Below, one piece after another: positions 23,676 to 42,242 of a stretch of DNA of 50,779 nt; positions within the stretch are counted from its first letter, which is position 1, and each line of letters opens with the position of its first letter. The stretch is from an uncultured Candidatus Saccharibacteria bacterium (GTDB lineage: Bacteria > Patescibacteriota > Kazan-3B-28 > UBA10110), in assembly GCA_964424375.1 (NCBI GenBank), contig CAYRIH010000001.1, forward strand, positions 19,577-70,355, written 5' to 3'. The translations under genes and the position numbers were made by a program. The notes under the pieces are model-generated. The model was not told the origin of the DNA. It made no database searches and saw only the letters and a program-made list of their open reading frames with translations.

Positions 23676-24449
23676 CTAAAGGGCCTCGGCAACGGGGTCC
23701 TTTGTGCGTTCATTTAACTCTTTTTTCCAGCAAATAAAGTCCTTCAAATGAAAAATATCAAATATCCGAAGTCCTGCTTCTTTGAGTGCATTTAACTCCC
23801 TTGAAATTCTCCCTGCGGTGCCAAACAAGACAACTTTCTTGCCTGCCTTTAGTAATCTCTCTAAAGGATCAGCAAAATCACTATCGCCACTCCACAACAC
23901 AAAGGTTTCCGTCCCGTTTTTTTCATAATCCAAAAGCATATCAACACCAATCTCGACATCAAAATTGCACTTTCTATCCTCAATGTAATACTCTCCCTTC
24001 TTATTCATGTTTCTAAAACAATCATTCAAATATTCAATCGTTCCAACCTCATATTTTCGCAAAAGCGCACGGCGGATAAATTGATTAAGCAAAGCTGTAG
24101 AGTCCGCTGGAACACTTGAAGCAACAATCGGAAATCGTAAGATTTTTACAGGTTTTGTACGGACAACATATTTTTGATTTTCTATTTCTTTTATCTCTTT
24201 CTTCGATTGCTCGCTACCATCAAGATATCCATTATAGAAATTGACTGCTTCAATGGTATCAAAAGAGTCCAAAAGTTGTTTTAATCTTTTTAAATCAATG
24301 TGCCATCCGAGTTTATTACTCCACGGACGGACGTTAGCATAATCAATATAAATCCGCGTTGAAGCTCCAAAAACATCTTCTAGTTGTCTCACAACCACCT
24401 GTTTACTCTCTGCGGTCTGTTTAATTTTTTCTGTCTTTGGTATAAACAT
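23676..24449 (-). CDS. NYN-domain (LabA/DUF88-like PIN-fold) putative ribonuclease
   Basis: RIYIDYANV, CNFDVEIGVDM and LWSGDSDF acidic motifs. The start lies 4 nt after the KTSC gene stop. Confidence 0.8.
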   Translation of the reverse strand: MFIPKTEKIKQTAESKQVVVRQLEDVFGASTRIYIDYANVRPWSNKLGWHIDLKRLKQLLDSFDTIEAVNFYNGYLDGSEQSKKEIKEIENQKYVVRTKPVKILRFPIVASSVPADSTALLNQFIRRALLRKYEVGTIEYLNDCFRNMNKKGEYYIEDRKCNFDVEIGVDMLLDYEKNGTETFVLWSGDSDFADPLERLLKAGKKVVLFGTAGRISRELNALKEAGLRIFDIFHLKDFICWKKELNERTKDPVAEAL

Positions 24450-24453
24450 AAAA

Positions 24454-24666
24454 CTAGCCGACTTTTTGATATCGATAACTGTACTTAATATAATTGTTCA
24501 AAAATTGCCCTTTTGATATAGCACTCATTAGCCCTTGATATAAGTGCTCCGGCACATTGAAATACTGATATATATCATTGGAAGTAAACTCTATTTCTAA
24601 AGTAGCCGACTGTGAATTATAGCCGATTGAACGAATATTTGTTGATGTAACTGGCGTTCTGTGCAT
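24454..24666 (-). CDS. KTSC-domain protein
   Basis: 70 aa reading SSNIRSIGYNSQSATLEIEF...YQYFNVPEHLYQGLMSAISKGQFLNNYIK, the typical KTSC pattern. Confidence 0.75.
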   Translation of the reverse strand: MHRTPVTSTNIRSIGYNSQSATLEIEFTSNDIYQYFNVPEHLYQGLMSAISKGQFLNNYIKYSYRYQKVG

Positions 24667-24686
24667 AATAATATTCTATCCTTTAA

Positions 24687-27600
24687 TTAATCTCTTTCAA
24701 CAATTTTAATTTCTTCTGGAGTAAGATCGTAAAGTTTATAAACTAATTGGTTGATTTGTTTTTCGTATTCTTTGACTTCTTCCTTTTTTGCAGGATTTTT
24801 TAAATAATCGATGGATTTGGTAATTGCCAAGATCTTATCAACAAGGTGCTCTATTTGTTCCACGATGTCTTTGTTGGATGGTGTGATTGGAGGAATTAAA
24901 AGAGGTTCAAGAGCCTGAACACTGACGATTACATCACCCGTGCCAGTTTTAGGAGCTTTATCATAAAGCATTTGATTTCCCAATTTAGAATTCATAAACG
25001 CGCACAAATATTTCAACTCGCTGCCTGTCATAATACAAGTGCTATCCTGACAATACATACTTTCATTATCTAAACCAAAACGAAGCACGGAACCAATTCG
25101 TTTCCACACAACCTTCTCCTTCTTAAATTCATTTAGGTATTCATCTTTGGGATTGTTATCTAATTCAAGCCAGTGATGCTGACCTTCCCCAGTACTGTTT
25201 CTCGAATAACGACATTGTCCACGATTTTTTAGCTTTTCTTCATATTGCGTTAGGTGCTTTAATATCGCTGGAAACTTATTCAGTTCTCTGTGAAATCCAT
25301 ATTTTATCAATATCACCCACAATCCAGCCCATTCATAATCAAAGCGTTTAATATCCCTTCCGCGTAAAATCGGTTTTAAGATTTCTGCACTTCTGGGATC
25401 ATCCGCAACAAGACGATCACGGACTGCTGTATCGATGATAAACGCTTCATTCAGACCTGTTATGACACCACGATAAATATTTACATCCCACTCTTTCAAC
25501 GGTTTACCGATTCGTTCTATTTTTTCTTTTAAGTTCTGCTCAGCCTGATTACCGATAAACCAGGCATCTTCATTCATTTTCGGTAATATGTTTTTATTTT
25601 TATCTATAAAATCAGACAATACCGAATCTTTTACTTCAGTATTAAGTGTTACGCCTGACAACTGACCATAATTATTCCCTTTCTCAATGATAAGAATATT
25701 GGTATCAACTGTGGCAGTTTCGAAAATTCCCGGACCTAAATCAACTAATAAAAGAGGATTGTACGAATTGAAAAGTTTCCTGAGGCTTTTTCCATATCCG
25801 GCTCTCATCCATTTATTACTGGTGATAAAGCAAAGATGTCCGCCGGTTTTCAAAGTATTAATTCCGTTTTCATAAAAAAGAGAATAAATATCGCCAGTGC
25901 GTTCAAAGGATTTATACCCGCAGTTTTTATACATATCAGCCAATTTCCCACCATCTTTTTGAAGTTGAACATAAGGAGGATTACCAATAACCACATCAAA
26001 TCCTTTTTTATCTTCAAAAACATCAATAAATTCCAATTTCCATAGAAAAAATGGTTTTTCTTTTTTGGGATTGTGTAGATTATCTAAAACTTCTTTAATC
26101 TTTGCTTCTGCAAGGAATTTGTCACCCCAAGAAGCCAAATATTTTTCGCGGCTCTTTTGATTCAACATATTGGCTTTAGCTTCCTCATTTTTTCTTTGCG
26201 CCTCCAAATCCTGCTTCCGCTTTTCTAAGGCCAAACGAATCAACCAATCTTTTATATCATTTATTTCTTTTCGCTTTGCTTGTTTTTCTTTATCATCGTG
26301 AATATCAAAATACTCTTTGACGTTCTTTTTAAGTTCAATGATTTTCCTTTGTTTCTTCCTATCAACTAACAAAGCTGTTTGTTGCCCAGTATCTTCACCA
26401 TTATAAAATTTTACACCCTCAAATTCTTCCAAAAGCGAATTGCCACACATTAGCCGATAATCCAAGTTTGGAAGCGGCTCAATATCTTTTAATTCATAAT
26501 CAACTACTAACTGAAGCCAGAGCCGCAATTTGGCGATTTCAATCGCGCCCGGGTCAATGTCTACTCCATAGATACAATTTTGAATAGTTTCCTTTTTTAA
26601 TTCGTATTCTGTTTTTTTCGCAAGTTTTTTAGGATGAAGCATTCGCAAAAGCAGGCGCAGACGGACTATTTCATTAAGCATGCCAACCAAAAAAGCGCCA
26701 GAGCCACAAGCTGGATCACAAACCTTGATATTTTTCAAAAGCTCGTCCAATTCAATCACTTCACCTTCAAAGGCGGCAATAGATTTATTTTCACCTTCAC
26801 GTAAAAATTTAACATATTTTTCCGCCTTCTTTCGTCCAATTTTTGAAGCGGAATCAAGATAATTTATCAAACTTTCTTGGCACATATAATACACAATCTC
26901 TCGCGGGGTGTAATAAGTGCCTTTACCTTTACGTAAATTTTCTGACAGTAAATTTTCAAAGACCTTACCAAGCATTTCCGGATCAATCGCAATTTCTTTA
27001 TCATCCGGGCTTTCTTCTTCAACTGTAAAATTATAACGATCAAAGACTTCAAAAATCGCTTGGAAAATTTTGTCGTCAAGATAAATTGAGCTATCTCTCC
27101 AGTTGTATTCAGCTTCAAAAAGTCCGCCATTTAAAAATGGGATTCGACAATTAAAATCCTTAGAAAAACTGGGATCGACCGAATCACGACGAGGATTATT
27201 TAGGGCATTATAAAATAATTTTTCTAGATAATCATTAAAAAAATTATTTTTGCTATTTTTTGCTTCTCTAAAAAGATTGCTCAAAAAATTCTTATTACCC
27301 TCACCCCATTTGCCACCTTCTGGTACACCTAACCAACCCTTCTTTTGGACGAAATAGAGAAATACAATTTGGCCAAGCAGTTTTTTAGCAAAATTTTCCG
27401 TATTTAATTGGTTTTTTGAAGCTTCATTAAGAAAAGTGTGGTTTTTTGAAAGTTCGTCGAGCAAACTTTCAAAAAGCTTGTGATATTCTAAATAAAATTC
27501 TTTGGTGATTTTTTCAACCGAAAACGCATCTTGTATTTTTTCCAAACTAGAAAAATCACTATCATTGATCCTTTGTAAGAAAGTTTTGTTAGTGAATTCA

Positions 27601-28022
27601 CGACTTACAAAATAAGTAAATCGACGAAAGTTGCTCCACTGGCGGCGAGTGCCAATTGATTTTGGATATATTAACGAGAAACGAAAATTACCACTTGAAT
27701 CATGGAAAATAAAAATGGCGGCCGAATATTGTTGGTTCTCGGCAGATTTTAAGATGTTTTTAGCTTTTTCGTATTGGGCTTTTTTGCCAGCACGTTCAGA
27801 AAGCTCTTGTTTAACTTCAAAAGCACAGATAATAAGACTGTCACCATCAGAAAAATTTATTTCTCCAAGCTTTATACCATTTTTAAAATCATCATCACTA
27901 TAACGAGAATAGTTTTCTTCTTGCGCTATAAATTGTCGGTTTTTCTCACGGAAAAAGCGACCAAATTTAGCAACAGAAAAATCACTTATTACTTTTTCTA
28001 GAACTTGTTTAGCTTCGCTCAT
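24687..28022 (-). CDS. Eco57I/MmeI-like N6-adenine DNA methyltransferase with possible N-terminal PD-ExK nuclease and C-terminal specificity domain (type IIG/IIL-like)
   Basis: Motif I is VCDPACGSGAFL and motif IV is VIGNPPYVQL. Also present are FLNGGLFE, DPEMLGKVFENLL and TYYTPREIV. N-terminal D61-x7-E69-V-K71 resembles the MmeI-type nuclease motif. The start overlaps the helicase stop (ATGA). Confidence 0.85.
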   Translation of the reverse strand: MSEAKQVLEKVISDFSVAKFGRFFREKNRQFIAQEENYSRYSDDDFKNGIKLGEINFSDGDSLIICAFEVKQELSERAGKKAQYEKAKNILKSAENQQYSAAIFIFHDSSGNFRFSLIYPKSIGTRRQWSNFRRFTYFVSREFTNKTFLQRINDSDFSSLEKIQDAFSVEKITKEFYLEYHKLFESLLDELSKNHTFLNEASKNQLNTENFAKKLLGQIVFLYFVQKKGWLGVPEGGKWGEGNKNFLSNLFREAKNSKNNFFNDYLEKLFYNALNNPRRDSVDPSFSKDFNCRIPFLNGGLFEAEYNWRDSSIYLDDKIFQAIFEVFDRYNFTVEEESPDDKEIAIDPEMLGKVFENLLSENLRKGKGTYYTPREIVYYMCQESLINYLDSASKIGRKKAEKYVKFLREGENKSIAAFEGEVIELDELLKNIKVCDPACGSGAFLVGMLNEIVRLRLLLRMLHPKKLAKKTEYELKKETIQNCIYGVDIDPGAIEIAKLRLWLQLVVDYELKDIEPLPNLDYRLMCGNSLLEEFEGVKFYNGEDTGQQTALLVDRKKQRKIIELKKNVKEYFDIHDDKEKQAKRKEINDIKDWLIRLALEKRKQDLEAQRKNEEAKANMLNQKSREKYLASWGDKFLAEAKIKEVLDNLHNPKKEKPFFLWKLEFIDVFEDKKGFDVVIGNPPYVQLQKDGGKLADMYKNCGYKSFERTGDIYSLFYENGINTLKTGGHLCFITSNKWMRAGYGKSLRKLFNSYNPLLLVDLGPGIFETATVDTNILIIEKGNNYGQLSGVTLNTEVKDSVLSDFIDKNKNILPKMNEDAWFIGNQAEQNLKEKIERIGKPLKEWDVNIYRGVITGLNEAFIIDTAVRDRLVADDPRSAEILKPILRGRDIKRFDYEWAGLWVILIKYGFHRELNKFPAILKHLTQYEEKLKNRGQCRYSRNSTGEGQHHWLELDNNPKDEYLNEFKKEKVVWKRIGSVLRFGLDNESMYCQDSTCIMTGSELKYLCAFMNSKLGNQMLYDKAPKTGTGDVIVSVQALEPLLIPPITPSNKDIVEQIEHLVDKILAITKSIDYLKNPAKKEEVKEYEKQINQLVYKLYDLTPEEIKIVERD

Positions 28023-31000
28023 AGTTTTTTATTCTCTATAGCTATAATGATTTCCTTTTTATGATCTTTCTGCCGATTCTTTTCTTTAATTAAATAATCT
28101 TCGCCCAACTCATTTCTTAATTCCAAAATGTCTTTAATTAAATTCTCTTTAAAGTTACCAATCCGGCGCAAAGTATAATCTGCCAAAGTACCATAACTTA
28201 AAATATCTTCTTTTAGAGTGCGGAGGAAGCCTTTGCTTGGCATTAACTCTTCTTTAGTATTTTTAATTAGAAAGTCAAGGTTATTTAATGCTTTCATTTC
28301 CAGGCTCTGCTCGCTATTTGGACCCAAGCGATAATCTTTAAATTCTTGTATTGCATGGTAGGCTTCCCAGAACTGCCCCGTATTCCAATTAAGTGATTTT
28401 TCATCGGATGAACAAACAATTTTATCAAACACATCCTCAAATGTAGTCTGATATGGCTCGATCTTTTCTGCATCTGTCTTAACCCCACTTATATACAAAC
28501 GCCCTTTTTTGAAAAATACCAGAAGTTCGTTATTACGATATTTTTTAGCAACTTTAATGCGAGGTGGATAATTTTCAAGGCTTTCGATTAATTCGGGGTT
28601 CCTTTTTTTAATCTTCAAAAATTCTTTAAGGGCCTTAGTATAAAAACTTTCTTTTTCTTTTTCGTCTGGATTTTGCTGCACACGATTAAATAAACCAGCT
28701 GGAGTTGGCTCTTCGTCTATGTCAAAAATCTTTGAATCTTCACCAAGCGCGGTATGGATAAGAAACATTTTATTGGCAGCAATTTCGCGAGATTGCACCA
28801 GTTGAGCACCTTGTTCGGTTGGGAAAAAATTCACTATATAAAGCTTGTTAAAAACTTTTTTACTAATACGGTTGATGCGCCCAAGTCGCTGAATAACACG
28901 CACTGGATTCCAAGGAATGTCATAGTTGATAACCATGCCAGCTCTATTTAGATTAAAGCCTTCAGAAATCTTGTCTGAAGAAAGGAGGAGCATAAAATCA
29001 TTATTTTGATCTTTGTAAGAAGCATCAAAATTTTTGTTTATTTGATCAATTTTTGAACCTGATAAATTACCAGCAACAACCAACATTTTATCGCCATAAT
29101 GTTTTTCTAGTGCCTTTTCCAAATAGTGTACAGTATCAACATATTCGGTAAAGATAATAATTTTACGCTTGGGTTCACCATTGTTTGGCTTTTTAGCATA
29201 TTCTTTTTTGAGATGCTCAATCAGACAAATGGTCTTGGGATCATTTTTTACTAGATCTAATTTTGAAAGCTTAGCCAAAATTTCATCAAATAATTCAAGA
29301 TCGGATTGAATATCGGCAATAAACTGGTCTTTGAGTGTAAATGAATCTAATTTGTAACGTTTATGGTTTTTGGGATATTCTCCTTTATTTATCTTTTCTT
29401 CATATTCAAGCAGATATTTTTCAATTTCGTCAGCATCTAGTTCGTAAATTTTTTCCAAAAGAGCACGATCTAATATATACTCGCCGGTTTTATTGATAAA
29501 CTTCTGGCTATTTTCAGTTATTTTTTTGAAATTCTTAATACTTTGCTCAAATGATCCAAAGGAGCTTTCAAAACGCTTAACTAACAAGCGACGCATAAAA
29601 TCAAATAAGTTGCGCTGTTGTACAAATTGAAAATTCTCTTTTTCGGTTAATTTTTCTTCGCTGATTTTTTTTGCACCAACTTCGTACTCAAACGGACGAT
29701 AAATTGCACCTTGAAAACGGCTACCCTCGTCAGGATCACCAAAATAGTTTTCAAGTATTTCTGTATAGAAATCGGATTGCTCTTTGCTTAATTCAAAAAA
29801 CCATTCTTGAGGATTAGCTACTTCTGAGAGTTCTTTCACTTCATTCTTATAATCAGGATTATTTTGCAGATCTAAGCGATTACGTCGGATGGTCACTGGT
29901 TCAATTACATTTCTGATTTGTTTAGCAAGATAACGCGCTCTTTGCGCTACTTTTTTAAGATCAATTTTGTCTTCTTCAAATAACGCTTTGTAGTAATTTT
30001 GAGCTTTATTTTTTTTCATACCATCAGGTGAATTCCTATATTTCTTAATATAGCCAAGCCGATCAAAAACACCTTTAAACCCTTTGAATTGATCGACAAG
30101 ATTGCTTTCTAAGGTAATGGAAGATTTTTTGGGGGTAATAAACAACTTAAGAAGCGAAAGAATGTCGCCGGGACGATTATTAAACGGGGTAGCTGTTAGC
30201 AAAACAACTTGTTTATCTCGACAGATGTTTTTTAGAAGTTCGTAGTCCTTTGTGTCTTGATTTCTAAACCAATGAACCTCATCAATTATTACTATTTCAA
30301 TATCCTGAGTTTTTGCAATGAAATCATTCAGTTTGTCTAAATCACCACGTGACCACACCTCCCAATCATAAAGACCGAACTGTTCTTTGTACTTGTTCCA
30401 ACCAGAGTCTTTTTTCCTTGGGTCCCCCTTTATTCCAGGTGGGCAAATGATTACACCGCGTTTTTTAAGTTGTTTTGCTACAGCGCAAGCGATAATAGTT
30501 TTCCCCAAACCTACAACATCAGCAATTATAACTCCTTTATCTTTTTCCATTATGGTGAGTGCTTGCCCTACGGCATCGAGTTGATACCGGTACGGCGTAT
30601 AACCGTTTTCTTCTAAAGTTTTTATCAAAGAATCACTAATTTCCCCTTGCTTAAATGAATCTAGGTAAGTTTTTAATACCAAACAAAAAGCTTCAAATGG
30701 CGAGATATCTTTAATAAGTGTTTCTTTTTCAATTACTTCGACAAGTTTCTTTTTAGTGTCATCATATTCGGTGATTTTTACGGCTTCGTCCCAAAGATCA
30801 TCAAAATATTTTTCTGCATCATCAAATCCATAATCTCCAATCTCCACGTTAAATTCGTTCTGAGTGCAAAGACCAGCTTTTGTCAGATTGCTACTACCAG
30901 TTATGAATAAATTTTTTCTACCTACTTGGCTTTGCTCTAACTTAAAAAGGTATAGTTTGGCGTGATTAGGTTCATAGGTTTTGCGAATGATTAGTTTATC

Positions 31001-31354
31001 TTTTTGAATCAACTTAATGAAAAATTTCACTTGCTCATAAAACTCTTTAGTATCAAAATTTTCTGTATTTAGAGATTTCTTTACAGATTCAATAAATTTA
31101 TAAGTTTTTTCCTCGTCTGATAGTTGTTCGTTCTCGGAAAATTCAATCAACCCAAAATTAGAACGATCAATATTTAACCCCACCAAAACTTTAGTGATAA
31201 TTTTTGGGTTTGATTTTAATCCTTTATAAAGCTCTTTGATTCCAGAAAAATAAAAAAATCCGACAAGAAATTTTAATTCTTCGCTTTTTTTAATAAGTTC
31301 AAGCAAGCGCTCTTTTAAATCACCTGTCTCGTTGTTTGTTATAAAATTAGGCAT
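28019..31354 (-). CDS. SNF2/SF2 helicase with N-terminal phospholipase-D (HKD) nuclease domain
   Basis: The HKD-like motif is NHAKLYLF...ITGSSNLTKAGL. Helicase motif I is VVGLGKTI, motif II is IIDEVHWFRN, and motif III is LLTATPFNN. Motifs V and VI are SEGFNLNRAGMVINYD and QRLGRINR. Confidence 0.85.
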   Translation of the reverse strand: MPNFITNNETGDLKERLLELIKKSEELKFLVGFFYFSGIKELYKGLKSNPKIITKVLVGLNIDRSNFGLIEFSENEQLSDEEKTYKFIESVKKSLNTENFDTKEFYEQVKFFIKLIQKDKLIIRKTYEPNHAKLYLFKLEQSQVGRKNLFITGSSNLTKAGLCTQNEFNVEIGDYGFDDAEKYFDDLWDEAVKITEYDDTKKKLVEVIEKETLIKDISPFEAFCLVLKTYLDSFKQGEISDSLIKTLEENGYTPYRYQLDAVGQALTIMEKDKGVIIADVVGLGKTIIACAVAKQLKKRGVIICPPGIKGDPRKKDSGWNKYKEQFGLYDWEVWSRGDLDKLNDFIAKTQDIEIVIIDEVHWFRNQDTKDYELLKNICRDKQVVLLTATPFNNRPGDILSLLKLFITPKKSSITLESNLVDQFKGFKGVFDRLGYIKKYRNSPDGMKKNKAQNYYKALFEEDKIDLKKVAQRARYLAKQIRNVIEPVTIRRNRLDLQNNPDYKNEVKELSEVANPQEWFFELSKEQSDFYTEILENYFGDPDEGSRFQGAIYRPFEYEVGAKKISEEKLTEKENFQFVQQRNLFDFMRRLLVKRFESSFGSFEQSIKNFKKITENSQKFINKTGEYILDRALLEKIYELDADEIEKYLLEYEEKINKGEYPKNHKRYKLDSFTLKDQFIADIQSDLELFDEILAKLSKLDLVKNDPKTICLIEHLKKEYAKKPNNGEPKRKIIIFTEYVDTVHYLEKALEKHYGDKMLVVAGNLSGSKIDQINKNFDASYKDQNNDFMLLLSSDKISEGFNLNRAGMVINYDIPWNPVRVIQRLGRINRISKKVFNKLYIVNFFPTEQGAQLVQSREIAANKMFLIHTALGEDSKIFDIDEEPTPAGLFNRVQQNPDEKEKESFYTKALKEFLKIKKRNPELIESLENYPPRIKVAKKYRNNELLVFFKKGRLYISGVKTDAEKIEPYQTTFEDVFDKIVCSSDEKSLNWNTGQFWEAYHAIQEFKDYRLGPNSEQSLEMKALNNLDFLIKNTKEELMPSKGFLRTLKEDILSYGTLADYTLRRIGNFKENLIKDILELRNELGEDYLIKEKNRQKDHKKEIIIAIENKKL

Positions 31355-31386
31355 ATTTTAGTTATTAAATAACTAATAATACCCTG

Positions 31387-31457
31387 ATTATACCCTATTC
31401 GGATATTCAGGGCTCTGAAAAAGCATTATTTCTAAACGGCTCACCCATGAGCCGTTT
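31387..31457. repeat. degenerate copy of the island intergenic module (GGGTATAAT box plus AAACGGCTCA..TGAGCCGTTT hairpin)
   Basis: Reads attataccc ... ttcagggctctgaaaaagcattatttctaaacggctcacccatgagccgttt. Confidence 0.5.
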
Positions 31458-31639
31458 AAATTTTTGTCCTAACAAGCTTTCTTGTGAAAAGAAGCTGTTG
31501 AACAAAACCAAACAACGACCACACATCGCTGTCTGACATTTCTTCTATATGTTTCTGTATATCCGAGCTAAGATTCATGGCCGCATTATAGCAGCCCGAT
31601 AGTTATTCAAACAAAAAAGACACTCCGACATCTAGGGCG

Positions 31640-33535
31640 TTACACTAAAGACACATATCTTTTCAGCTCATTTATGTTGTTTGGTTTAGATTGCGCAGTA
31701 TAATCTAACTTTTTACAAACATCCATAATCTTTACAATAAATCTATCAAACTCCACCGTAGTCATCGAGATGTTCCCATCTGCATCTTTAATGCTTGTTT
31801 GCCATACAGAGCCGATATCAAGTGGCGGCTGAGGTCTGTGGCCACTAACATTAAAGATTTTATGATCTTGTTTTGTAATCCAACCAGCTCCAACTTCTGC
31901 TACAGCCCCCCATGAAGTAGCCATCTCATTACTGGTGATATAAAGTACTAATATTTTTTTATCAGAATAACTATCGACAAAAAAATCTCTTAAATAATCA
32001 AAAACACCCGTGACGGCTTCAGGAATTCGTGCTCCCTCATTATCACAATTAGTATAAATAATGTCTTCGTCTAAAAAACCATTAAACGAAAGCATCTTAT
32101 AAACAATGTCTGCCAACGGTTTATCCGCTAAAGTGTGACTGATAAGTATTTGTTTTTTCTGTGCGTCCACTTTTGTCTTCAAGCCAAGAAGAGGAAGTGC
32201 GGCATTCATTTCACTTTTGACAATTTTCTCAATATTTTCAATTTTTTTCTGTCCAATCAATTTTACAATTTTTCCAGCTGCAATTTGAGAAGCGACATTT
32301 CTATATTTATCCACTCTCTTTCTCAATTCCTCTTCATCATGTTTTTGACGTTCTTGTTTTCCCTCATCCCGAATCTTCTTAAGGTGATCAGCATAAATCT
32401 CTCGCATAGCCACAATACGTGGGAGTAAACTATTCCTAACGTGTCCAACAACAAATTGATACCTTGGATCTTCAGTCTTATAACCCTGCCGGTTACTTAA
32501 AGCCATATCAGGTAGTTCTGTTTCTTCAAAAAGATCAACATGGAGCTGACCCACTATATAAACCTCTGGAAGTCTATTTTTACCCACAAGAGGGATAATA
32601 TTATATTCACCAAGCTTGCCATTAGAAAGCAATGAAATAAAGTTATCCGGGAAATCGCCAGGATTTTTCTTTCTATCCCGAGTTGTTCTGTAAGCGCCTA
32701 TCCAACCTTTAATCTCCAAATTATATGGTTTTTCTTCTCCCTGTTTGTTTTTAAGAATTAATGAGGTAGTAATGGGCATCTCTGTCTTCAAAAGTTTCTC
32801 CTCGATATTTCCTTTTTTTGGTAATAGAGAATCAAAATGAACAGCAAGATGTTTATAATCCTCCCCTAAAGTTATTAAAGCACCTAGTCCTTGAACCATT
32901 TCTTTGTCAAATGAATCCACCGTGATCTCCGCGGCATCGGTGATGATATGAATTTTAAACTTTTCGTTTACGAGAGGAAAAATTTTTAAAAGATTTTTCT
33001 TAATTGCAGCAACAGTCTTATGCATTCCATATTGGGGATTTGTCATTACTATTGAGGTGCCTTTAGCAGAAACTCGTTCAAATTTTATAGCTTCGTCACT
33101 TAAAGGTTTTAATTGATGGTCTTTCCCAACATGACGAGATAAAACAAATCCAGATTTTTCTCCATTCTTTACAGTTATCACCAAAACATTCTCTGAAACT
33201 GCAAGAGCGGCTAGTTTGCCTATTCCCTTTCTACCAATTTTTCTACGACGCCCGTCTTCGGTGTAAGAGTCTTTTTCTGTAATACGAGTTTCAACCGCAA
33301 CATTTAAATATTTTTTTATATCCCCTGTTTGATATGACATTCCAGATCCATCATCTTCAACAATTATTTTATTCTTTTTCTGAATTATATAAACATTGGA
33401 CGCATTGGCATCATATGAGTTAGCTATAAGTTCTGCCAAAACAAAATAAATGTTTGTATACAAACTTGGTCCTAATAATTCTAAAATTCTTGGATTAATG
33501 TTGATTTTGTATTCGCGATCACTCGGTTTATTCAT
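31640..33535 (-). CDS. GHKL (HATPase_c_3/MORC-like) ATPase fused to a C-terminal TIR-like domain
   Basis: The N box is ELIANSYDA, the G1 box is EDDGSGMS and the G2 box is GRKGIGKLA. The last ~170 aa read ILISHTLADKPLADIVYKMLSFNGF...ILVLYITSNEMATSWGAVAEVGAGW, a TIR/DUF1863-like pattern. The start is set at the ATG that overlaps the dcm stop (ATGA at 33532-33535); the track ORF starts at 33619. Confidence 0.7.
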   Translation of the reverse strand: MNKPSDREYKININPRILELLGPSLYTNIYFVLAELIANSYDANASNVYIIQKKNKIIVEDDGSGMSYQTGDIKKYLNVAVETRITEKDSYTEDGRRRKIGRKGIGKLAALAVSENVLVITVKNGEKSGFVLSRHVGKDHQLKPLSDEAIKFERVSAKGTSIVMTNPQYGMHKTVAAIKKNLLKIFPLVNEKFKIHIITDAAEITVDSFDKEMVQGLGALITLGEDYKHLAVHFDSLLPKKGNIEEKLLKTEMPITTSLILKNKQGEEKPYNLEIKGWIGAYRTTRDRKKNPGDFPDNFISLLSNGKLGEYNIIPLVGKNRLPEVYIVGQLHVDLFEETELPDMALSNRQGYKTEDPRYQFVVGHVRNSLLPRIVAMREIYADHLKKIRDEGKQERQKHDEEELRKRVDKYRNVASQIAAGKIVKLIGQKKIENIEKIVKSEMNAALPLLGLKTKVDAQKKQILISHTLADKPLADIVYKMLSFNGFLDEDIIYTNCDNEGARIPEAVTGVFDYLRDFFVDSYSDKKILVLYITSNEMATSWGAVAEVGAGWITKQDHKIFNVSGHRPQPPLDIGSVWQTSIKDADGNISMTTVEFDRFIVKIMDVCKKLDYTAQSKPNNINELKRYVSLV

Positions 33536-34572
33536 AGGACGTTCATTACATGTTCTATAATAGTTTTCCCAATAACTTGACCTAATACAGGTGGCACCGC
33601 ATTCCCTATATGCCGACAAAGTTGTGTCATTGGCAAATCTCCAAATTCGTATGAAATCGGGAATGTCTGTAATAATGCGCCCTCTCTCAACGAGATTGCA
33701 CGATCTTGCTCGGGATGTCCAAATCGTCCAGAACCATAACTAGCAAACTGTGTCGTAATTGTAGGTGATACATTATCCCAACTCATACGCCCATATACAG
33801 AAGTATATGTTTGTCCACTATCTTTTTGATAACATGCAGGCAATATTTTTTTGGCCCAATCTTTCCATGATCCACCTGGTTTTGATTGCTTAATACGTTT
33901 TAAATTGATTGGAATCAAACTTTTTGCTTGATGCATTTTGTCTTCTTCATGCCTCTGCCCAGCTTTTAGACTTGGAAGTAGTTTTATGGTATCGCCTACC
34001 GTTACATAATTCTCTTTTGAGTGTGTTGTTTCTGGGACTTTAATATTCCCAAGTTTTGAAGCAAGTAAGATGAGTCTACTTCTGTTCTGTGGCACTCCAT
34101 AATCTGGAGCATAAACAACATCAAAATCAACTTTATATTTCATCTTTTTCAGTTGTGTCACAAAGTTCTTAAAAACATTAGTTTTAATTACTCCTCGAAC
34201 ATTCTCCATTGAAACCACTTCTGGTTTGATAATCTGAATTGCACGCACAAAATGATCTAGGAGGTTCCATCTCTCATCTTTTTCGTTATTGTGCAGTTTA
34301 TGTGTATGTGCCGAAAATGGTTGACACGGAGCACAACCGACAAGAACTTTAACGCCTGATTTCGAATATATATTTTTTAACTCCCTAAAATCATATGTTG
34401 AAACATCTGTCAGTATAAACTTGGCATTATTGTTTTTTTCATATGTGACAGCACATGATTTATCATTATCAAGACCAGCTAGAACATGAATACCCGCTTT
34501 TCTAAGCCCATAAGTCAGCCCACCAATTCCACTAAATAAGTCAATTGCCTCAATTTTTAATTTTTTTTTCAT
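33532..34572 (-). CDS. dcm: DNA (cytosine-5)-methyltransferase
   Basis: Motif I is DLFSGIGG, motif IV is GCAPCQPFS, motif VI is ENVRG, motif VIII is QNRSRL and motif X is GNAVPP. Confidence 0.93.
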   Translation of the reverse strand: MKKKLKIEAIDLFSGIGGLTYGLRKAGIHVLAGLDNDKSCAVTYEKNNNAKFILTDVSTYDFRELKNIYSKSGVKVLVGCAPCQPFSAHTHKLHNNEKDERWNLLDHFVRAIQIIKPEVVSMENVRGVIKTNVFKNFVTQLKKMKYKVDFDVVYAPDYGVPQNRSRLILLASKLGNIKVPETTHSKENYVTVGDTIKLLPSLKAGQRHEEDKMHQAKSLIPINLKRIKQSKPGGSWKDWAKKILPACYQKDSGQTYTSVYGRMSWDNVSPTITTQFASYGSGRFGHPEQDRAISLREGALLQTFPISYEFGDLPMTQLCRHIGNAVPPVLGQVIGKTIIEHVMNVL

Positions 34573-34681
34573 AAATCTATTTTACACAAACATCTCCTGC
34601 ATTATACCTTTTTTCCATTGCTTGGCTTGGGTGATTTGTTGTTGTTTTGATTTTATTAAATCATCGGGCAATAATACCTCA

Positions 34682-34758
34682 ATTATACCCTAAATTAAAA
34701 ACTAACTTTCAGAGCTATTTTTATCCTGTTTATTCAACGGCTCATCCATGAGCCGTTG
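34682..34758. repeat. island intergenic module, copy E1
   Basis: Reads attataccctaaattaaaaactaactttcagagctatttttatcctgtttattcaacggctcatccatgagccgttg. Confidence 0.85.
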
Positions 34759-34868
34759 AAACTTTTATCTTAATTTATACAAAAATCAAAAGTAAGCTGT
34801 AAAAACGCGGTCGTGTTTTTATAACTCATCCTAGAACTGTCTTTATCTTATTTATTGTTATCTATCTA

Positions 34869-35324
34869 CTATTTACACTGAAAATTATTGGTTATATAAA
34901 CAGCTACATATTGCTTCAATTCATCGAAAGAAGCACTCTTGTTCCTTGTTTTGTCGCTGACATAATATGCAATATCTTTTAACTTGAAACCCTCACTGGG
35001 AACCACATACTCATAACCATTTAGCTCCATAAAATATGCTAAAACCATAAAAGCCAGCCTTTTGTTGCCATTACTAAAAAGATGTCTTTCAATAATTGTC
35101 GTGAATAAATAAGCAGCTTTATCGAAAATAGTTGGATAATATTCATCATTTTTAATGAAATCTAAAAATGGGGTCATATTACCCTTATCCTCCTTGCGAT
35201 AATCAGGAAGAGGTTCATTATCAGAATCTACATCCAAGGTGACCTCTACCAATCTAAAAATAATGAAATGAACATCCTTCTCGGAAATATATTTAATTTC
35301 TTGAGAGTTCAGAAAGCTCGTCAT
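34869..35324 (-). CDS. doc: Doc (death-on-curing) family Fic-fold toxin
   Basis: Doc signature HLFSNGNKRLAF (HxFx[DN]GNKR). Confidence 0.85.
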   Translation of the reverse strand: MTSFLNSQEIKYISEKDVHFIIFRLVEVTLDVDSDNEPLPDYRKEDKGNMTPFLDFIKNDEYYPTIFDKAAYLFTTIIERHLFSNGNKRLAFMVLAYFMELNGYEYVVPSEGFKLKDIAYYVSDKTRNKSASFDELKQYVAVYITNNFQCK

Positions 35325-35490
35325 TATACCGACTATATGTTTTATCTACAAATTTACTAACAGCTCTGCTCTTTTGAGGATTATTTTTTACGGATTTCAC
35401 AACATCTCTAGATACATAATGATACGCATCAGTTTTTTTTCTGCGTGAATTAAAATTAAACAAGTTTCCTATAATCTTTCGAATGCTCAT
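35293..35490 (-). CDS. small basic protein, putative cognate antitoxin of Doc
   Basis: 65 aa, immediately upstream of doc and overlapping it by 32 nt. No recognisable Phd/YefM motif. Confidence 0.4.
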   Translation of the reverse strand: MSIRKIIGNLFNFNSRRKKTDAYHYVSRDVVKSVKNNPQKSRAVSKFVDKTYSRYNDELSELSRN

Positions 35491-35614: not shown

Positions 35615-35698
35615 ATTATACCCTAAATCCCTGGCCACAAACGTCCTACGGGCAGGCAAAAACTAACTTTCAGAGCTATTTTTATCCTATTTCTTCAA
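35615..35698. repeat. island intergenic module, copy E2 (carries a 29-nt GC-rich insertion; core overlaps the stop of the peptidase gene)
   Basis: Reads attataccctaaat[ccctggccacaaacgtcctacgggcaggc]aaaaactaactttcagagctatttttatcctatttcttcaa. Confidence 0.85.
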
Positions 35699-36311
35699 CA
35701 TCCAGAAACTTTATACAATCATTTTCTATCCAAACTGCTTGAGTGTCTTTTATGAAGAAAAGTGGCTCTAAATCTTTAGGCATATGTTCGACAACTTTTT
35801 TATTTTCCTCTACAAAATCAGCATTATCACAATGTGGCATAATACCAAAATTAATAATTCCCAACCCAGCATGATTAGATATCTTTTCTATATGGTCAGC
35901 TTCCTCTTCATCATATGAAAATGGTTTTATGCTTTTAGAAACAATAATCGACCCAGCGCTTGTACCTGTGTAGATAATAGATTCTGCCTGTATTGCTTCT
36001 TTGATAACTTCATCAAAACCACCTGTTTTAAGCAACGACATTAGATAATAAACACTACCACCACACACATGTAAAATATCATTCTCTGAAATTAGTTTTT
36101 TGAGTTCATTAGAATCAATCTTGCGTAAATCAATTTCAGTGAGCTGATATCCTTGTTTCCTAAAAGCATTTCTATCCCAATCTACAAAATGCTTATCATC
36201 ATGCGAATCTGCCGCATTAGTTATAAATAGAACTCTTTTACCTACATTTGGCAAAAGAGCCTTAAGCAAAGGAAGTGTATTATTTATAGCTGATGCAAGA
36301 AAAAGTTTCAT
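35682..36311 (-). CDS. peptidase E-like (S51 family) protein
   Basis: GTSAGSII nucleophile elbow, LHVCGGSVYYLM and GIMPHCD motifs. TATAAT ends 6 nt before the ATG, so the mRNA is probably leaderless. Confidence 0.7.
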   Translation of the reverse strand: MKLFLASAINNTLPLLKALLPNVGKRVLFITNAADSHDDKHFVDWDRNAFRKQGYQLTEIDLRKIDSNELKKLISENDILHVCGGSVYYLMSLLKTGGFDEVIKEAIQAESIIYTGTSAGSIIVSKSIKPFSYDEEEADHIEKISNHAGLGIINFGIMPHCDNADFVEENKKVVEHMPKDLEPLFFIKDTQAVWIENDCIKFLDVEEIG

Positions 36312-36317
36312 AAATCA

Positions 36318-36392
36318 ATTATACCCTAAATTAAAAACTAACTTTCAGAGCTATTTTTATCCTATTTATTCAATGGCTCACATGAGCTGTTG
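36318..36392. repeat. island intergenic module, copy E3
   Basis: Reads attataccctaaattaaaaactaactttcagagctatttttatcctatttattcaatggctcacatgagctgttg. Confidence 0.85.
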
Positions 36393-36414: not shown

Positions 36415-37269
36415 ATGGAGATAAAAGTAAAGGCAGTAGCAGATAAACGCATATTCTGTTTATATGCCGCTTTAAATGCTACAGTTTATGATAAAGAAAA
36501 TGCCGAGGCAATGCATTCGCTTCGCTTAAAAGTACGAGATTATTTAAATAGTAGAGATTTATTATTAGGAGAGTTAAAACAACTTTTTGCCAAGTACCCA
36601 GAAGAATTTTATTATCGTTTTCGTCATTGGATATTAAGTCATGGCAATCCGCCGGAGTTTAAAGAAATTAATAATTTTTGGAAATGTAATAGTTTAAGAG
36701 ATTTAGATAGATTTAAAGAATTGTTGCGAGACTTCTGGAATCAAAGCCAAATCGAGAAATTATGGCAGGAATTTAGTATTGAATATAAATCTGCAATTAA
36801 AGAAGCACAAAAAAATGGGGAGATTGCGGTTAAACAAGTAACAGATTATTTAAATATAGAAAATTTGAATATAGAGAAGTTGATAATTATTCCGAATTTG
36901 TTAGATAGTTACAACATTGGGTTAGGACCTACAGTTAATAAAACTGCCTATGCTATTTTGGGTCCTTCACAAAATGGGTTTTCTGTGCCTCGCATCGAAC
37001 ATGAATTATTGCATTCGATTATTAATCCATTAACAGAAGATTTTAATAAACAAAAAAGGTCAAAACTGCGAGAATATATTATTAGAGCAATAGTGTTGAG
37101 GCTAAATAAAGATAATCAAAGATACTACAAAGAATCAAAACAAAAATTAATTGATAAAGAATACATTTATATTGACGATTTTTTAAATAATTTAGAGATA
37201 TTTGAAAAGAGTAAACAACCATTTAACAAGTATTTTAAACACTGGTTATTGAATATCCAGCTTGATTAA
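36415..37269 (+). CDS. HExxH-motif protein (putative zinc metallopeptidase) heading the RiPP operon
   Basis: 284 aa with IEHELLHSI as the only HExxH motif. Same strand as the radical-SAM gene and 70 nt upstream of it. Confidence 0.55.
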   Translation: MEIKVKAVADKRIFCLYAALNATVYDKENAEAMHSLRLKVRDYLNSRDLLLGELKQLFAKYPEEFYYRFRHWILSHGNPPEFKEINNFWKCNSLRDLDRFKELLRDFWNQSQIEKLWQEFSIEYKSAIKEAQKNGEIAVKQVTDYLNIENLNIEKLIIIPNLLDSYNIGLGPTVNKTAYAILGPSQNGFSVPRIEHELLHSIINPLTEDFNKQKRSKLREYIIRAIVLRLNKDNQRYYKESKQKLIDKEYIYIDDFLNNLEIFEKSKQPFNKYFKHWLLNIQLD

Positions 37270-37344
37270 TTAGCTCTGGTAGCGTATAATATTGTTAGTA
37301 CCTTAAAATCATTTAATCTCTATAGAAGGAGGTGACCTTTGAAC

Positions 37345-38631
37345 ATGGAGATAAAAACTGAGTTGATACGGGACACTATTGTCGTTCATGGTCCTGATGC
37401 TGTTTATTTGTATGCACAGTCTACACAACAGGTAGCCCGAGTGCGTGAATTGACCATGACTATTAAAAATAATCTAACTAATAAGGGTTTTTTTAATATG
37501 GTTCCCAGGTCAATGCGGTATCGCCCTCCAAGGAAGTGGAAAAGTTTAATGTTGCTTTTGGCTAAAGATTGTCCACTTAAATGCAGATATTGTTATGCCC
37601 ATGGAGGTAGCAACAATGAGATGATGAGTCCAGAGGTCGCCAATAGAGCAGTTGCTGTTTATCTTGCTACTCAACCAAAGAACCCTAGGGTAATTTTGTT
37701 TGGTGGTGGTGAACCAGCAATGAACATTCCAGCCATTAAGCATATTGTTAATAAGTATGGTACGAGTATCAAGTGGCACATGACAACTTCTGGGGTGATG
37801 TCTCAATCGTTTTTGCGATGGTTGATAGAACATGAAGTGGGAATGACTATTTCTATTGATGGACCACCAGACATTCAAAATGATTTGCGTCCCCTGCGTG
37901 GAGGTGGTGCTTCAGCACCGATTGTTGAGCAGACCATTAGAACACTGGCAATGGAGTCCAATAGGAGAGTTAGTCTAAGGGCAACCATTACTCGTAGTAC
38001 ACTCTGGGAGATGAGTCGGATTTTAGACTATTTCAGTGAGTTGGGAGCAAAAACAGTTCATATTGAGAGGGTTTATTCTCTTGGACGAGCGTTAAAGGAT
38101 AATTCAGATAACTTAAGCCCATTAAATTTATCTGAGATGGTAGAGATGGCAACGCTTGGATTGGACTGGGCAAAGACAACTGGAAAACGTCTCAAAATAG
38201 GTGGTTTGACATATTTATTAAACCCTCGCATTTCCCATTATTGTGGGGCAATGTCAGGACAAAGTATGGTTGTTAACCATTTAGGACAACTTACGAGTTG
38301 TAGTGAAGTTGTTGATGATCAGACAAAAGAGTGGTCACTTTTCCAATTAGGCTATATTGACAAGCATAGCCAAGTACATTTGGATGAACAAAAACTTGTT
38401 CATTCTCAGCATCGCGTGGTTACTAACATGGAAGCATGTAAATCATGCTTTGCTAGATACTTATGTAGAGGAGGTTGTGCTCATAAGGCATGGGCAGTGA
38501 CAGGTGATATTTTTACACCAGATCCTCAGCACTGTCAATTCATTCGTGCAATTATTCCTATTTTGATTCAGCGCATGGTCGATCAGCATTATCCTCAGTT
38601 GAGGAAATCTAAAGAAAGGATGGTGCAATAA
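37345..38631 (+). CDS. radical SAM enzyme with C-terminal SPASM domain (peptide-modifying maturase type)
   Basis: CPLKCRYCYA CxxxCxxC cluster motif, GGGEP, and SPASM cysteines CGAMSG...C...CKSCFARYLCRGGCAHKAW. The GGAGGTG Shine-Dalgarno lies 10 nt before ATG 37345; the track uses TTG 37339. Confidence 0.85.
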   Translation: MEIKTELIRDTIVVHGPDAVYLYAQSTQQVARVRELTMTIKNNLTNKGFFNMVPRSMRYRPPRKWKSLMLLLAKDCPLKCRYCYAHGGSNNEMMSPEVANRAVAVYLATQPKNPRVILFGGGEPAMNIPAIKHIVNKYGTSIKWHMTTSGVMSQSFLRWLIEHEVGMTISIDGPPDIQNDLRPLRGGGASAPIVEQTIRTLAMESNRRVSLRATITRSTLWEMSRILDYFSELGAKTVHIERVYSLGRALKDNSDNLSPLNLSEMVEMATLGLDWAKTTGKRLKIGGLTYLLNPRISHYCGAMSGQSMVVNHLGQLTSCSEVVDDQTKEWSLFQLGYIDKHSQVHLDEQKLVHSQHRVVTNMEACKSCFARYLCRGGCAHKAWAVTGDIFTPDPQHCQFIRAIIPILIQRMVDQHYPQLRKSKERMVQ

Positions 38632-38632
38632 C

Positions 38633-38752
38633 ATGCCAAATAGTGATATCTTTGTAAGTAATGCTGAGTTGTCTGAATTGTTCGCCTTAGACAACACCTG
38701 TCCTACGCACTATGAATGTGGCGACGACTGCACCTGCGATGATGATCCATAA
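38633..38752 (+). CDS. 39-aa Cys/Asp-rich putative RiPP precursor peptide (MPNSDIFVSNAELSELFALDNTCPTHYECGDDCTCDDDP)
   Basis: Not in the ORF track because it is too short. The ATG lies 1 nt after the radical-SAM stop, and a strong terminator follows at 38788-38817. The layout is a leader-like N-terminal half plus a core with 4 Cys and 6 Asp/Glu. Confidence 0.6.
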   Translation: MPNSDIFVSNAELSELFALDNTCPTHYECGDDCTCDDDP

Positions 38753-38787
38753 ACAAGGAGTTTAAAGTGACATCATTGCAATGATGT

Positions 38788-38817
38788 GCCCCAACTGAAA
38801 TATGTTGGGGCTTTTTG
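38788..38817 (+). terminator. rho-independent terminator of the RiPP operon
   Basis: GCCCCAAC-tgaaatat-GTTGGGGC followed by TTTTTG. Confidence 0.75.
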
Positions 38818-38867
38818 TATCATAATTATTATTTGAATATATCTGAAATGCTTTATAAATTCGCGAC

Positions 38868-38963: not shown

Positions 38964-39524
38964 TTAGTGCGATGCTATGAGCGAGATTGTTGCCTGACCT
39001 TCATCAGTAAAACGTAGGTTATCCGTAATAATGCTGTTGCCAGAAACTTTAGCAACTCGACGGATAAAATTTTCGAGTACCCCCAGCCGAGCCACTACCA
39101 AGAGCATCACTGCTTCGTCCTCCATCTCCGAGAGACCGGAAAAGGAAAAAACAAACCTATACCCAGATATTCCACAACCAACAGCTCCGCCCCATCTCTG
39201 TTTTTCAGGGTTTCGAGATTCCCAGCTTAACAAAAGATCACTTGGATGTGCTCGATCTGTGTCCATATCCATAAGCATAGAGGTACGTTTTGCCTTCTCT
39301 ACACAAAATTCAGAGTATTTACCCCCCTTACCATTCATGATTTCCCCAACTAAAGTGGGAGGAATCAAGAAAGTATTGGTTGCATGATCGAGAAGACAAA
39401 AATATCCTCCCAACTTTTTCGGCACAGTGAGGGCGAGCACCTCCTCGATCAATTCTACGACTATCGCCAAAACTGCAGAAACCAACCTTGGGAATTGTCC
39501 CGCAACAGAAAAGTCTAAACTCAT
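38964..39524 (-). CDS. hypothetical protein, possibly GlcG/HbpS-like (DUF336)
   Basis: 186 aa and GC-richer than the surroundings. GGAVGCGISG...FSGLSEMEDEAVMLLV loosely resembles the DUF336 G-rich loop plus DE motif. A TTGACA-17-TATACT promoter is at 39565-39600 on the minus strand. Confidence 0.4.
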   Translation of the reverse strand: MSLDFSVAGQFPRLVSAVLAIVVELIEEVLALTVPKKLGGYFCLLDHATNTFLIPPTLVGEIMNGKGGKYSEFCVEKAKRTSMLMDMDTDRAHPSDLLLSWESRNPEKQRWGGAVGCGISGYRFVFSFSGLSEMEDEAVMLLVVARLGVLENFIRRVAKVSGNSIITDNLRFTDEGQATISLIASH

Positions 39525-39601
39525 TCTTATTCACCTCCAAATCAAGGAGCATCAGAGCCCCTGTTGATACTTAAAGTATATTCTAACTACACTTTAGTGT
39601 C

Positions 39602-39685
39602 AAAAAACTACCTTTCAGAGCTATTTTTATCTTATTTATTCAACAAAGAATTTTTGTATAAACTACTGGATTATGAGAAAATAAT
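39602..39685. repeat. island intergenic module, long form, copy E4
   Basis: Reads aaaaaactacctttcagagctatttttatcttatttattcaacaaagaatttttgtataaactactggattatgagaaaat. It matches 42161-42242 at most positions. Confidence 0.8.
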
Positions 39686-39894: not shown

Positions 39895-40269
39895 TCAAAT
39901 TTCGAATTCGGTGAAACCGGCAGGCATGAGTCTTGTCCAAACATATGCTTTCCGGTTAGATCCATTGAAGACCAATTCGTTGGTTTTGCACATGATCTGC
40001 ATGGCCTTAGCAATGTTGTCGTTCCTTTCCTGAAGATTCACTCGCCGGGACGGATAATCATTAGCGTCGATTTGGATGATTGCCGCATAGCCCCTAGTTT
40101 CATCCATTTCCCCGAATGGGCGGAATTCCACCTCGACATCCTCAGGAACAAGGGGTCCATTTTCATCTGTACAACTTAAAGCGTCAGCCACGATTTTGGC
40201 AATAGGCGTTACGAGAGGCTTATTGAACCGCACATGGCGAGCATCGTATTTGAATATAACCTGTGGCAT
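39895..40269 (-). CDS. hypothetical protein
   Basis: 124 aa and GC-richer than the surroundings. Preceded by the duplicated TTGACT-17-TATATT promoter/5'UTR module and a GGAG Shine-Dalgarno. Confidence 0.55.
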   Translation of the reverse strand: MPQVIFKYDARHVRFNKPLVTPIAKIVADALSCTDENGPLVPEDVEVEFRPFGEMDETRGYAAIIQIDANDYPSRRVNLQERNDNIAKAMQIMCKTNELVFNGSNRKAYVWTRLMPAGFTEFEI

Positions 40270-40279
40270 CAATGTTCAT

Positions 40280-42160: not shown

Positions 42161-42242
42161 ACAAAACTGACTTTCAGGGTTATTTTTATCCTATTTCTTA
42201 AACAAAGAATTTTTGTATAAACTGTTGGATTATGAGAAAATT
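42161..42242. repeat. island intergenic module, long form, copy E5
   Basis: Reads acaaaactgactttcagggttatttttatcctatttcttaaacaaagaatttttgtataaactgttggattatgagaaaatt. Confidence 0.8.

Follow-up and report, generated by a model that had tools for sequence, protein, structure and literature searches.

A probable thioether-crosslinked peptide module with a radical-SAM/SPASM maturase and a candidate zinc leader peptidase in Patescibacteria

The window is a 50,779-nucleotide (nt) stretch of contig CAYRIH010000001.1 (GenBank assembly GCA_964424375.1, positions 19,577 to 70,355 of the forward strand) from an uncultured Candidatus Saccharibacteria bacterium, placed by GTDB in the Kazan-3B-28 lineage of the Patescibacteriota. 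It encodes three consecutive plus-strand products: an HExxH protein, a radical S-adenosylmethionine (SAM) enzyme with a SPASM domain, and a 39-amino-acid (aa) peptide rich in Cys and Asp. The trio probably forms a module for a thioether-containing ribosomally made, post-translationally modified peptide (RiPP), with a predicted chemistry that is most likely of the ranthipeptide type and with a dedicated leader peptidase. Systems in which a SPASM radical-SAM maturase modifies a peptide rich in Cys and Asp are already known as a kind. The members of the trio are:

36415-37269, plus strand: HExxH protein, cytoplasmic, 284 aa; HELLH is encoded at 37000-37014
37345-38631, plus strand: predicted radical-SAM/SPASM peptide maturase, 428 aa from the ATG at 37345 used by public gene callers, or 430 aa if the TTG at 37339 is the start
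38633-38752, plus strand: precursor peptide gene, 39 aa, sequence MPNSDIFVSNAELSELFALDNTCPTHYECGDDCTCDDDP

An earlier note, made from the letters of this DNA, had described the three reading frames, the HELLH motif, the CxxxCxxC and SPASM cysteines, the 1-nt spacing between the last two genes and a terminator behind them. All of these were found where it had placed them.

The 39-aa open reading frame (ORF) is a real gene that is linked to the enzyme and is under coding selection. It starts 1 nt past the TAA stop of the radical-SAM gene and has no earlier in-frame start codon. Its leader comprises approximately residues 1-22, MPNSDIFVSNAELSELFALDNT, and its core is CPTHYECGDDCTCDDDP, with four Cys and six Asp or Glu residues. 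These two halves had been noticed in the earlier reading, and both are conserved. Among 160 loci related to the radical-SAM gene of the window, a 37-50-aa ORF lies 1-70 nt 3' of the enzyme in essentially every locus that has an enzyme at least 43% identical together with downstream sequence. Members of this ORF family possess a conserved DIRIVDAELEELS-like leader, and the family consensus is a leader (M)DDIRIVDAELEELSxAS followed by the core CPxD(V)SCGDDC[T/S]CxxD. Used as a tblastn query against the related loci, the window peptide gives E-values down to 2.6e-9. A hidden Markov model (HMM) of the precursor scores 50-74 bits on the downstream ORFs and 66.8 bits on the window peptide, which is present as a single copy in the window.

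The precursor ORF is kept beside homologous enzymes in more than 25 loci. The codons of the CGDDC element differ between loci by 306 synonymous and 0 nonsynonymous changes (120 locus pairs), which indicates purifying selection at the protein level. Conservation of the small ORF beside orthologous radical-SAM genes, on which the original proposal depended, is therefore well founded.

The exact 39-aa peptide is absent from a collection of approximately 15 billion predicted proteins and was thus never called as a gene there. An exhaustive phmmer/HMMER scan of 1.84 billion representatives returned a single called homologue, P0126, at 76% identity. A word-indexed homologue search with the 49-aa stop-to-stop frame of the precursor gave no match, and none of the Pfam and NCBIfam (June 2026) models matched any precursor variant. 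The peptide is thus unannotated, and its core matches no known RiPP family in these model collections, both as first suggested. Short precursor genes of this size are systematically missed by gene calling, as the absence of the peptide from the databases shows.

A conserved leader joined to a variable core is the classic signature of RiPPs. The family has a short precursor, a conserved leader, a variable core and genetic linkage to a modifying enzyme. In the sister clade (clade B), whose enzymes are 32-34% identical, the leader, IxVxxAxxPEELxLG, is homologous and the core, CPGDDCNxDTGGCLPADSSCGQDCSCPSD, is longer. A leader common to two clades, with a core that varies in the number of its units, is typical RiPP behaviour.

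The cores are composed of 3-6 Cys-X2-Asp units in 17-30 aa and contain a fixed CGDDC[T/S]C element. Position +3 from Cys holds Asp or Glu for 60% of the clade A and 65% of the clade B Cys residues. Shuffling the cores of these related sequences gives 25% and 20%, respectively, and 0 of 2000 shuffles reaches the observed value. At position +4 the frequency is only 19-27%, making Cys-X2-Asp the dominant spacing. The Thr or Ser of C[T/S]C is kept in 15 of 17 clade A cores and, by analogy with CteB, could be a gamma-carbon acceptor.

Variants of the core are found at other loci. L093 (7296-7604) and L094 (4910-5218) each encode two tandem precursors that have a common leader and distinct cores, TTCTNDVEDDPCPGDFCNNDN and CPCGDNAEVGCGDDCTCNDQD, so the enzyme may have a relaxed substrate specificity. 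Cys/Asp-rich ORFs with CxxD repeats and up to 8 Cys are present in L016 (4973-5251), a Polyangium metagenome-assembled genome (MAG), and in L005 (1661-1840), a Myxococcota MAG. They sit 3' of distant relatives of the enzyme (28-33% identity), and the L016 core reads CSPD..CLND..CSYD..CGVD. The association of the enzyme with CxxD peptides thus reaches beyond Patescibacteria.

As judged by profiles and models, the radical-SAM/SPASM enzyme works like a thioether-forming peptide maturase and belongs to none of the described equivalog families. Its CxxxCxxC motif is C78-x3-C82-x2-C85, encoded at 37570-37593. The SPASM motif, CX13GX4C...CX2CX5CX3C...C, spans 38242-38535 and is made up of C302-x13-G316-x4-C321, C367-x2-C370-x5-C376-x3-C380, and C399. 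Exactly 10 Cys are invariant across 41 sequences, three of the radical-SAM motif and seven of SPASM. No eighth Cys is invariant, which, by analogy with CteB, is compatible with the first auxiliary cluster having an open iron site that would bind a substrate thiolate. The family comprises approximately 41 clusters at 40-80% identity, after which identity falls to 27%.

Model searches of the kind proposed in the earlier note gave a divided answer. The enzyme belongs to Radical_SAM PF04055 (43.6 bits, gathering threshold 29.5) and to SPASM TIGR04085 (48.2 bits, cutoff 27), and it falls outside the PapB, QhpD and SCIFF families. The top curated NCBIfam match is the QhpD model TIGR03906, with 130.8 bits against a cutoff of 453. 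It is followed by the PapB model NF047865 (128.8 bits, cutoff 340), the Nif11-peptide maturase model (119.2 bits, cutoff 519) and the SCIFF maturase model TIGR03974 (104.8 bits, cutoff 425). Each of these four leading families consists of maturases that form thioethers or act on Cys-containing peptides. The model for the anaerobic sulfatase-maturating enzyme (anSME), TIGR03942, gives 70.8 bits against a cutoff of 349. Sactisynthase models score 55 bits (StsB) and 47 bits (GggB), and none of the cyclophane, DynA and DarE models exceeds 58 bits.

Structure comparison points to CteB. The family profile finds CteB (5WGG) as its best match in the PDB, at 2.9e-32, with anSME next at 1e-22. The AlphaFold2 model of the enzyme has a predicted local distance difference test score (pLDDT) of 91.8, and its best fold match is again CteB, with a template modelling (TM) score of 0.71-0.74 over approximately 455 columns. 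anSME aligns over just approximately 380 columns, excluding the N-terminal domain. This difference implies that the domain is matched in CteB; it is beta-rich, approximately 65 aa long, and modelled as four strands and one helix. The earlier expectation that the enzyme would not group with sulfatase maturases agrees with this full-length match and with the gap between the anSME score and those of PapB and QhpD.

A second radical-SAM/SPASM gene is present in some related clusters: L083 (3568-4671), L111 (5718-7103), L116 (2349-3785) and L092 (384-1817). The one in L083 is anSME/DynA-like, at 286 bits, which is under the cutoff. Some members of the family may thus be modified further.

In the proposed pathway, the bond type, acceptor atoms, number of links and cleavage site are predictions. 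The precursor would be translated in probable coupling to the upstream radical-SAM gene. Its leader of approximately 22 aa, a beta-prone segment followed by AELxEL, would dock on the N-terminal domain of the enzyme. The enzyme would reductively cleave SAM, and the 5'-deoxyadenosyl radical would remove a side-chain hydrogen of an acceptor residue in the core. The carbon radical left behind would be trapped by a Cys thiolate bound to an auxiliary [4Fe-4S] cluster, forming an intramolecular thioether. The Cys-X2-Asp cores, together with PapB, QhpD and CteB as the closest enzymes, make non-alpha-carbon (ranthipeptide-type) bridges from Cys sulfur to Asp beta-carbon the most likely links. With up to four such links, the product would be a polycyclic peptide of 17-18 residues, compact and highly acidic. 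The unmodified precursor has a calculated monoisotopic mass of 4295.690 Da, which each link would lower by 2.016 Da, to 4287.627 Da with four. Removal of the leader would then fall to the adjacent cytoplasmic HExxH...E zinc peptidase.

Several characterised systems resemble the trio in part. QhpD makes Cys-to-Asp/Glu thioethers in QhpC, a small Cys/Asp-rich polypeptide. The window peptide is approximately one third the size of QhpC, has no match to the QhpC Pfam model, and lacks a Trp for the cysteine tryptophylquinone cofactor. CteB, which acts on CteA (SCIFF/thermocellin; 5WGG and 5WHY), is the closest solved structure by profile and fold, including its N-terminal peptide-binding domain. SCIFF maturases such as CteB link Cys to the gamma-carbon of Thr, and SCIFF clusters have no dedicated peptidase. 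The window enzyme is only approximately 20% identical to CteB, and the SCIFF precursor model of NCBIfam has no match to the window peptide.

PapB and its substrate PapA (freyrasin) also pair a SPASM radical-SAM maturase with a short precursor that has serial Cys-Xn-Asp units. PapB is the best family match for the sister-clade enzyme (150 bits) and the second best for the window enzyme. The substrates of the PapB family repeat Cys-X3-Asp, whereas Cys-X2-Asp prevails in the family described here. This family also has an unrelated leader, a dedicated HExxH peptidase, and Patescibacteria, not Paenibacillus, as hosts. In CX3D motifs, PapB bonds the sulfur of Cys to the beta-carbon of Asp, and it tolerates CXnD spacings with n = 0-6 (PMC9413430). 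This tolerance makes a CX2D bridge plausible.

The 284-aa protein is probably a gluzincin-type zinc peptidase, according to its motif and its structure model. HELLH is its only metal motif. H196, E197, H200 and E220 are invariant in 22 sequences, and E220 lies exactly 20 residues past the second His. The AlphaFold2 model (pLDDT 92.8) places the zinc-motif residues on helices 191-206 and 212-230. The protein thus has the arrangement that defines gluzincins of clan MA, an HExxH and a Glu approximately 20 residues downstream on the next helix. Like thermolysin, it has HExxH and a Glu at +20; unlike the gluzincins thermolysin (M4) and M61, it is small and mostly helical, and its N-terminal half is without a recognisable relative.

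A role as the leader peptidase is proposed from gene association. Homologues of the 284-aa protein adjoin the enzyme/peptide pair in at least 14 loci. Relative to the pair, the HExxH gene of the window, of L001 (candidate division Kazan) and of L162 lies upstream with the same orientation; at most other loci it is convergent and just downstream. In clade B, a 232-aa HExxH protein with a weak Peptidase_MA_2 match occupies the convergent position. Homology between the 284-aa and 232-aa families is undetectable (hhalign probability 0.3%), and both types are present in L003. Other loci have added S41 or M16 peptidases. A peptidase is nearly always adjacent while its family is interchangeable, which is good guilt-by-association evidence for a leader-peptidase role. 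The earlier suggestion that the HExxH protein might be a leader peptidase is strengthened by these loci, the invariant residues and the non-homologous replacements. Two of the homologues are named by NCBI as Patescibacteria and Portnoybacteria proteins, and one is named "DUF4932 domain-containing protein".

A number of results weigh against the proposed module. The enzyme scores far under the curated cutoff of every characterised family, so its function is not transferable by homology. Its N-terminal domain has no match to the RRE/PqqD model (PF05402) at E <= 0.1. For the 284-aa protein, a sequence search of the PDB gave no match, and the Pfam model DUF4932 scores 23.7 bits, below its gathering threshold of 28.7 (the L001 protein scores 20.4 bits). 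Foldseek gives no match to the 284-aa model at E <= 1e-3; the highest-probability matches are gluzincins, namely M61 7XYO, aureolysin, gentlyase and thermolysin, over approximately 115 columns with a root-mean-square deviation of 3.1-3.6 Å. The sequences behind the motif statistics are kin, so the shuffle test overstates their independence. Despite this, clades A and B differ in core architecture, yet both show Cys-X2-Asp. The first unit of the window peptide is C-P-T-His, and a His is likewise found there in L084, L003 and L097. Some Cys residues, the first among them, thus lack an obvious carboxylate partner. Finally, the module has no linked transporter or immunity gene.

Other chemistries would suit the same genes. 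The peptide could be a RiPP of the same kind with sactipeptide-type links, from Cys sulfur to an alpha-carbon. Sactisynthases are likewise SPASM radical-SAM enzymes and are highly divergent, so sequence similarity predicts chemistry poorly (PMC10288494), and the window enzyme is under every curated cutoff. The sactisynthase models nevertheless score much lower than the ranthipeptide and QhpD models (105-131 bits), and CteB, the best structural match, is a non-alpha thioether synthase. The regular Cys-X2-Asp spacing also points to a carboxylate-bearing side chain as acceptor, as in PapB and QhpD. Sactipeptide links are thus rather unlikely. SPASM enzymes catalyse many reactions, and the Thr or Ser of C[T/S]C, together with the best match to an enzyme that links Cys to Thr, would fit Cys-to-Thr gamma-carbon links only, as in SCIFF/thermocellin. 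Ether or C-C crosslinks and epimerisation belong to the same group of explanations. The cores have no conserved aromatic residue for C-C cyclophane or streptide chemistry, the cyclophane, DynA and DarE models score poorly, and four invariant Cys with regular Asp spacing would be left without explanation. Reactions of this group are considered unlikely.

The product may also stay in the cell, as a QhpC-like subunit, a peptide-derived cofactor precursor or a metal-binding peptide, and not be a secreted natural product. QhpD is nominally the top NCBIfam match, no exporter is linked, the Patescibacteria hosts have reduced genomes, and four Cys with many Asp could chelate metals. The dedicated peptidase and the leader/core architecture fit a released peptide better, and an intracellular product is judged improbable. 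Its QhpC-like variant, which the earlier note had offered as an alternative, was not upheld: the QhpD score is far below its cutoff, no qhpA/B/E/F/G-type genes are present in the window or in related loci, and the QhpC Pfam model has no match. A last explanation takes the enzyme as an anSME-type Cys oxidase (formylglycine synthase) and the small ORF as incidental. Although anSME is the second-best PDB match, it scores approximately one fifth of its cutoff on the window enzyme, and anSME has no counterpart of the N-terminal peptide-binding domain by which the window enzyme aligns with CteB. Neither a nearby sulfatase gene nor a C-x-P-x-R motif is present, and the small ORF shows strict linkage to the enzyme and strong coding selection. 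A sulfatase maturase is therefore highly improbable.

The proposed thioether RiPP module occurs chiefly in Patescibacteria, which are ultra-small and have reduced genomes. Among GTDB species representatives, close relatives are encoded by candidate division Kazan, Brennerbacteria, Wolfebacteria, Paceibacterota and other Patescibacteria. Myxococcota and DPANN archaea hold more distant relatives, and the DPANN loci (L007-L009) have no recognisable precursor. Patescibacteria have tiny genomes and are usually reported with few or no biosynthetic gene clusters (BGCs). One survey found zero BGCs in its Patescibacteria MAGs (PMC11613949). In the literature searched, no description was found of the CGDDC motif, of this clade, or of such a radical-SAM RiPP family in Patescibacteria, also known as the candidate phyla radiation (CPR).

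No previous description appears to exist of the maturase clade, the CX2D/CGDDC core, the leader or the accompanying gluzincin-like peptidase family. A bolder reading, held tentatively, is that these peptides form an undescribed RiPP class or sub-class of "CxxD-repeat" thioether peptides, with its own SPASM maturase clade, released by new small gluzincin leader peptidases. If so, many CPR lineages would share a CxxD-repeat module that is both conserved and mobile, and Myxococcota would hold outliers. The module would then count as one of the first dedicated natural-product pathways in reduced-genome episymbionts, possibly for interaction with hosts or competitors. That a compact module is kept across several CPR lineages argues that the predicted crosslinked peptide matters to their lifestyle. 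RiPP enzymology would gain a minimal natural substrate, a 17-aa core in which Cys-X2-Asp units accompany an invariant CGDDC[T/S]C knot. It would also gain a maturase clade outside all curated families and a small zinc peptidase as a candidate leader protease.

Transcription signals and repeats accompany the trio:

37262-37290, plus strand: promoter-like site TTGATT-17-TATAAT in the 75-nt gap 5' of the radical-SAM gene; a consensus match only
37328-37332, plus strand: Shine-Dalgarno sequence GGAGG, 5' of the radical-SAM gene
38788-38821, plus strand: intrinsic terminator, GCCCCAAC-loop-GTTGGGGC followed by TTTTTGTATC
36310-36380, plus strand: repeat copy at the left boundary of the cassette, core CTTTCAGAGCTATTTTTATC at 36342; 94% identical to 34674-34744
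34674-34776, 35635-35737, 36310-36380, 39580-39682 and 42163-42241, plus strand: copies of the island direct repeat, core CTTTCAGAGCTATTTTTATC

Promoter-like sites are no more numerous than expected from shuffled sequence. The terminator hairpin (38788-38811) has an 8-bp stem with 6 G-C pairs and is followed by TTTTTGT. The direct repeat is 45-79 nt long and occurs in five copies, all on the plus strand, only within 34.7-42.2 kb of the window and always in intergenic gaps between small gene cassettes. The copies at 36310-36380 and 39580-39682 bracket the cluster and one unrelated 186-aa minus-strand ORF (38964-39524), which agrees with the earlier description of a cluster bounded by island repeat modules. 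The repeat could be a promoter/untranslated-region module or a recombination site that assembles the island. Two further pairs of direct repeats, 40279-40335/42079-42135 (57 nt, 96% identity) and 40848-40882/41549-41583 (35 nt, 97%), hint that an approximately 0.7-1.8-kb unit 3' of the cluster was recently duplicated in place.

The module appears to be a mobile cassette, because it has different flanks in every genome and the peptidase gene does not keep one orientation. These unrelated flanks include ProRS, RNase J, a nucleotidyltransferase, Lnt and AbiEii. In the window, the housekeeping genes dnaX, murC, ftsQ and tRNA-Gln surround a variable island, within which the module lies. Acquisition as a cassette had been argued from a guanine-plus-cytosine (GC) content visibly above that of the host DNA. 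The window has a GC content of 0.365, and its ORFs have a mean of 0.369 with a standard deviation (SD) of 0.037. The radical-SAM gene (0.408, +1 SD) and the peptide (0.433) are above the mean, whereas the HExxH gene (0.291, -2 SD) is below it. The GC argument for horizontal transfer is thus too weak and uneven across the three genes, and the case for mobility is carried by the flanks and the gene orientation.

A dense defence island at 23676-35490 lies between dnaX and the RiPP cluster. It is made up of an NYN nuclease, a type IIG restriction-modification enzyme that scores 740 bits in PADLOC, a DrmD-like SNF2+PLD helicase, a GHKL-ATPase type II restriction-enzyme-like protein that overlaps with a Dcm methyltransferase, and a Doc toxin whose 65-aa upstream ORF may be its antitoxin. 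Association with a defence island is not a general feature of the module, given its flanks in other genomes (ProRS, RNase J, nucleotidyltransferase, Lnt). The module is not a known defence system, since PADLOC gives just a 30-bit generic radical-SAM-core match to pVip, nor a phage gene, since PHROGs gives just a generic radical-SAM family.

The neighbouring genes, namely those for the S51 peptidase and Doc and the 186-aa and 125-aa ORFs, were rejected as parts of the module; they are not conserved at other loci. The S51 gene (PepE/cyanophycinase-like; 35682-36311, minus strand) is divergent from the HExxH gene, has a similarly low GC content and, given this lack of conservation, is probably not part of the module. 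The 186-aa ORF and the 125-aa ORF (39895-40272, minus strand) have the highest GC content of the region, 0.447 and 0.466, respectively. They have no match in Pfam, NCBIfam, PADLOC or PHROGs and are called as genes in the Logan contig L161. The strongest compositional outlier of the window is the ORF at 8510-9850 (minus strand), with a GC content of 0.486, approximately 3 SD above the ORF mean.

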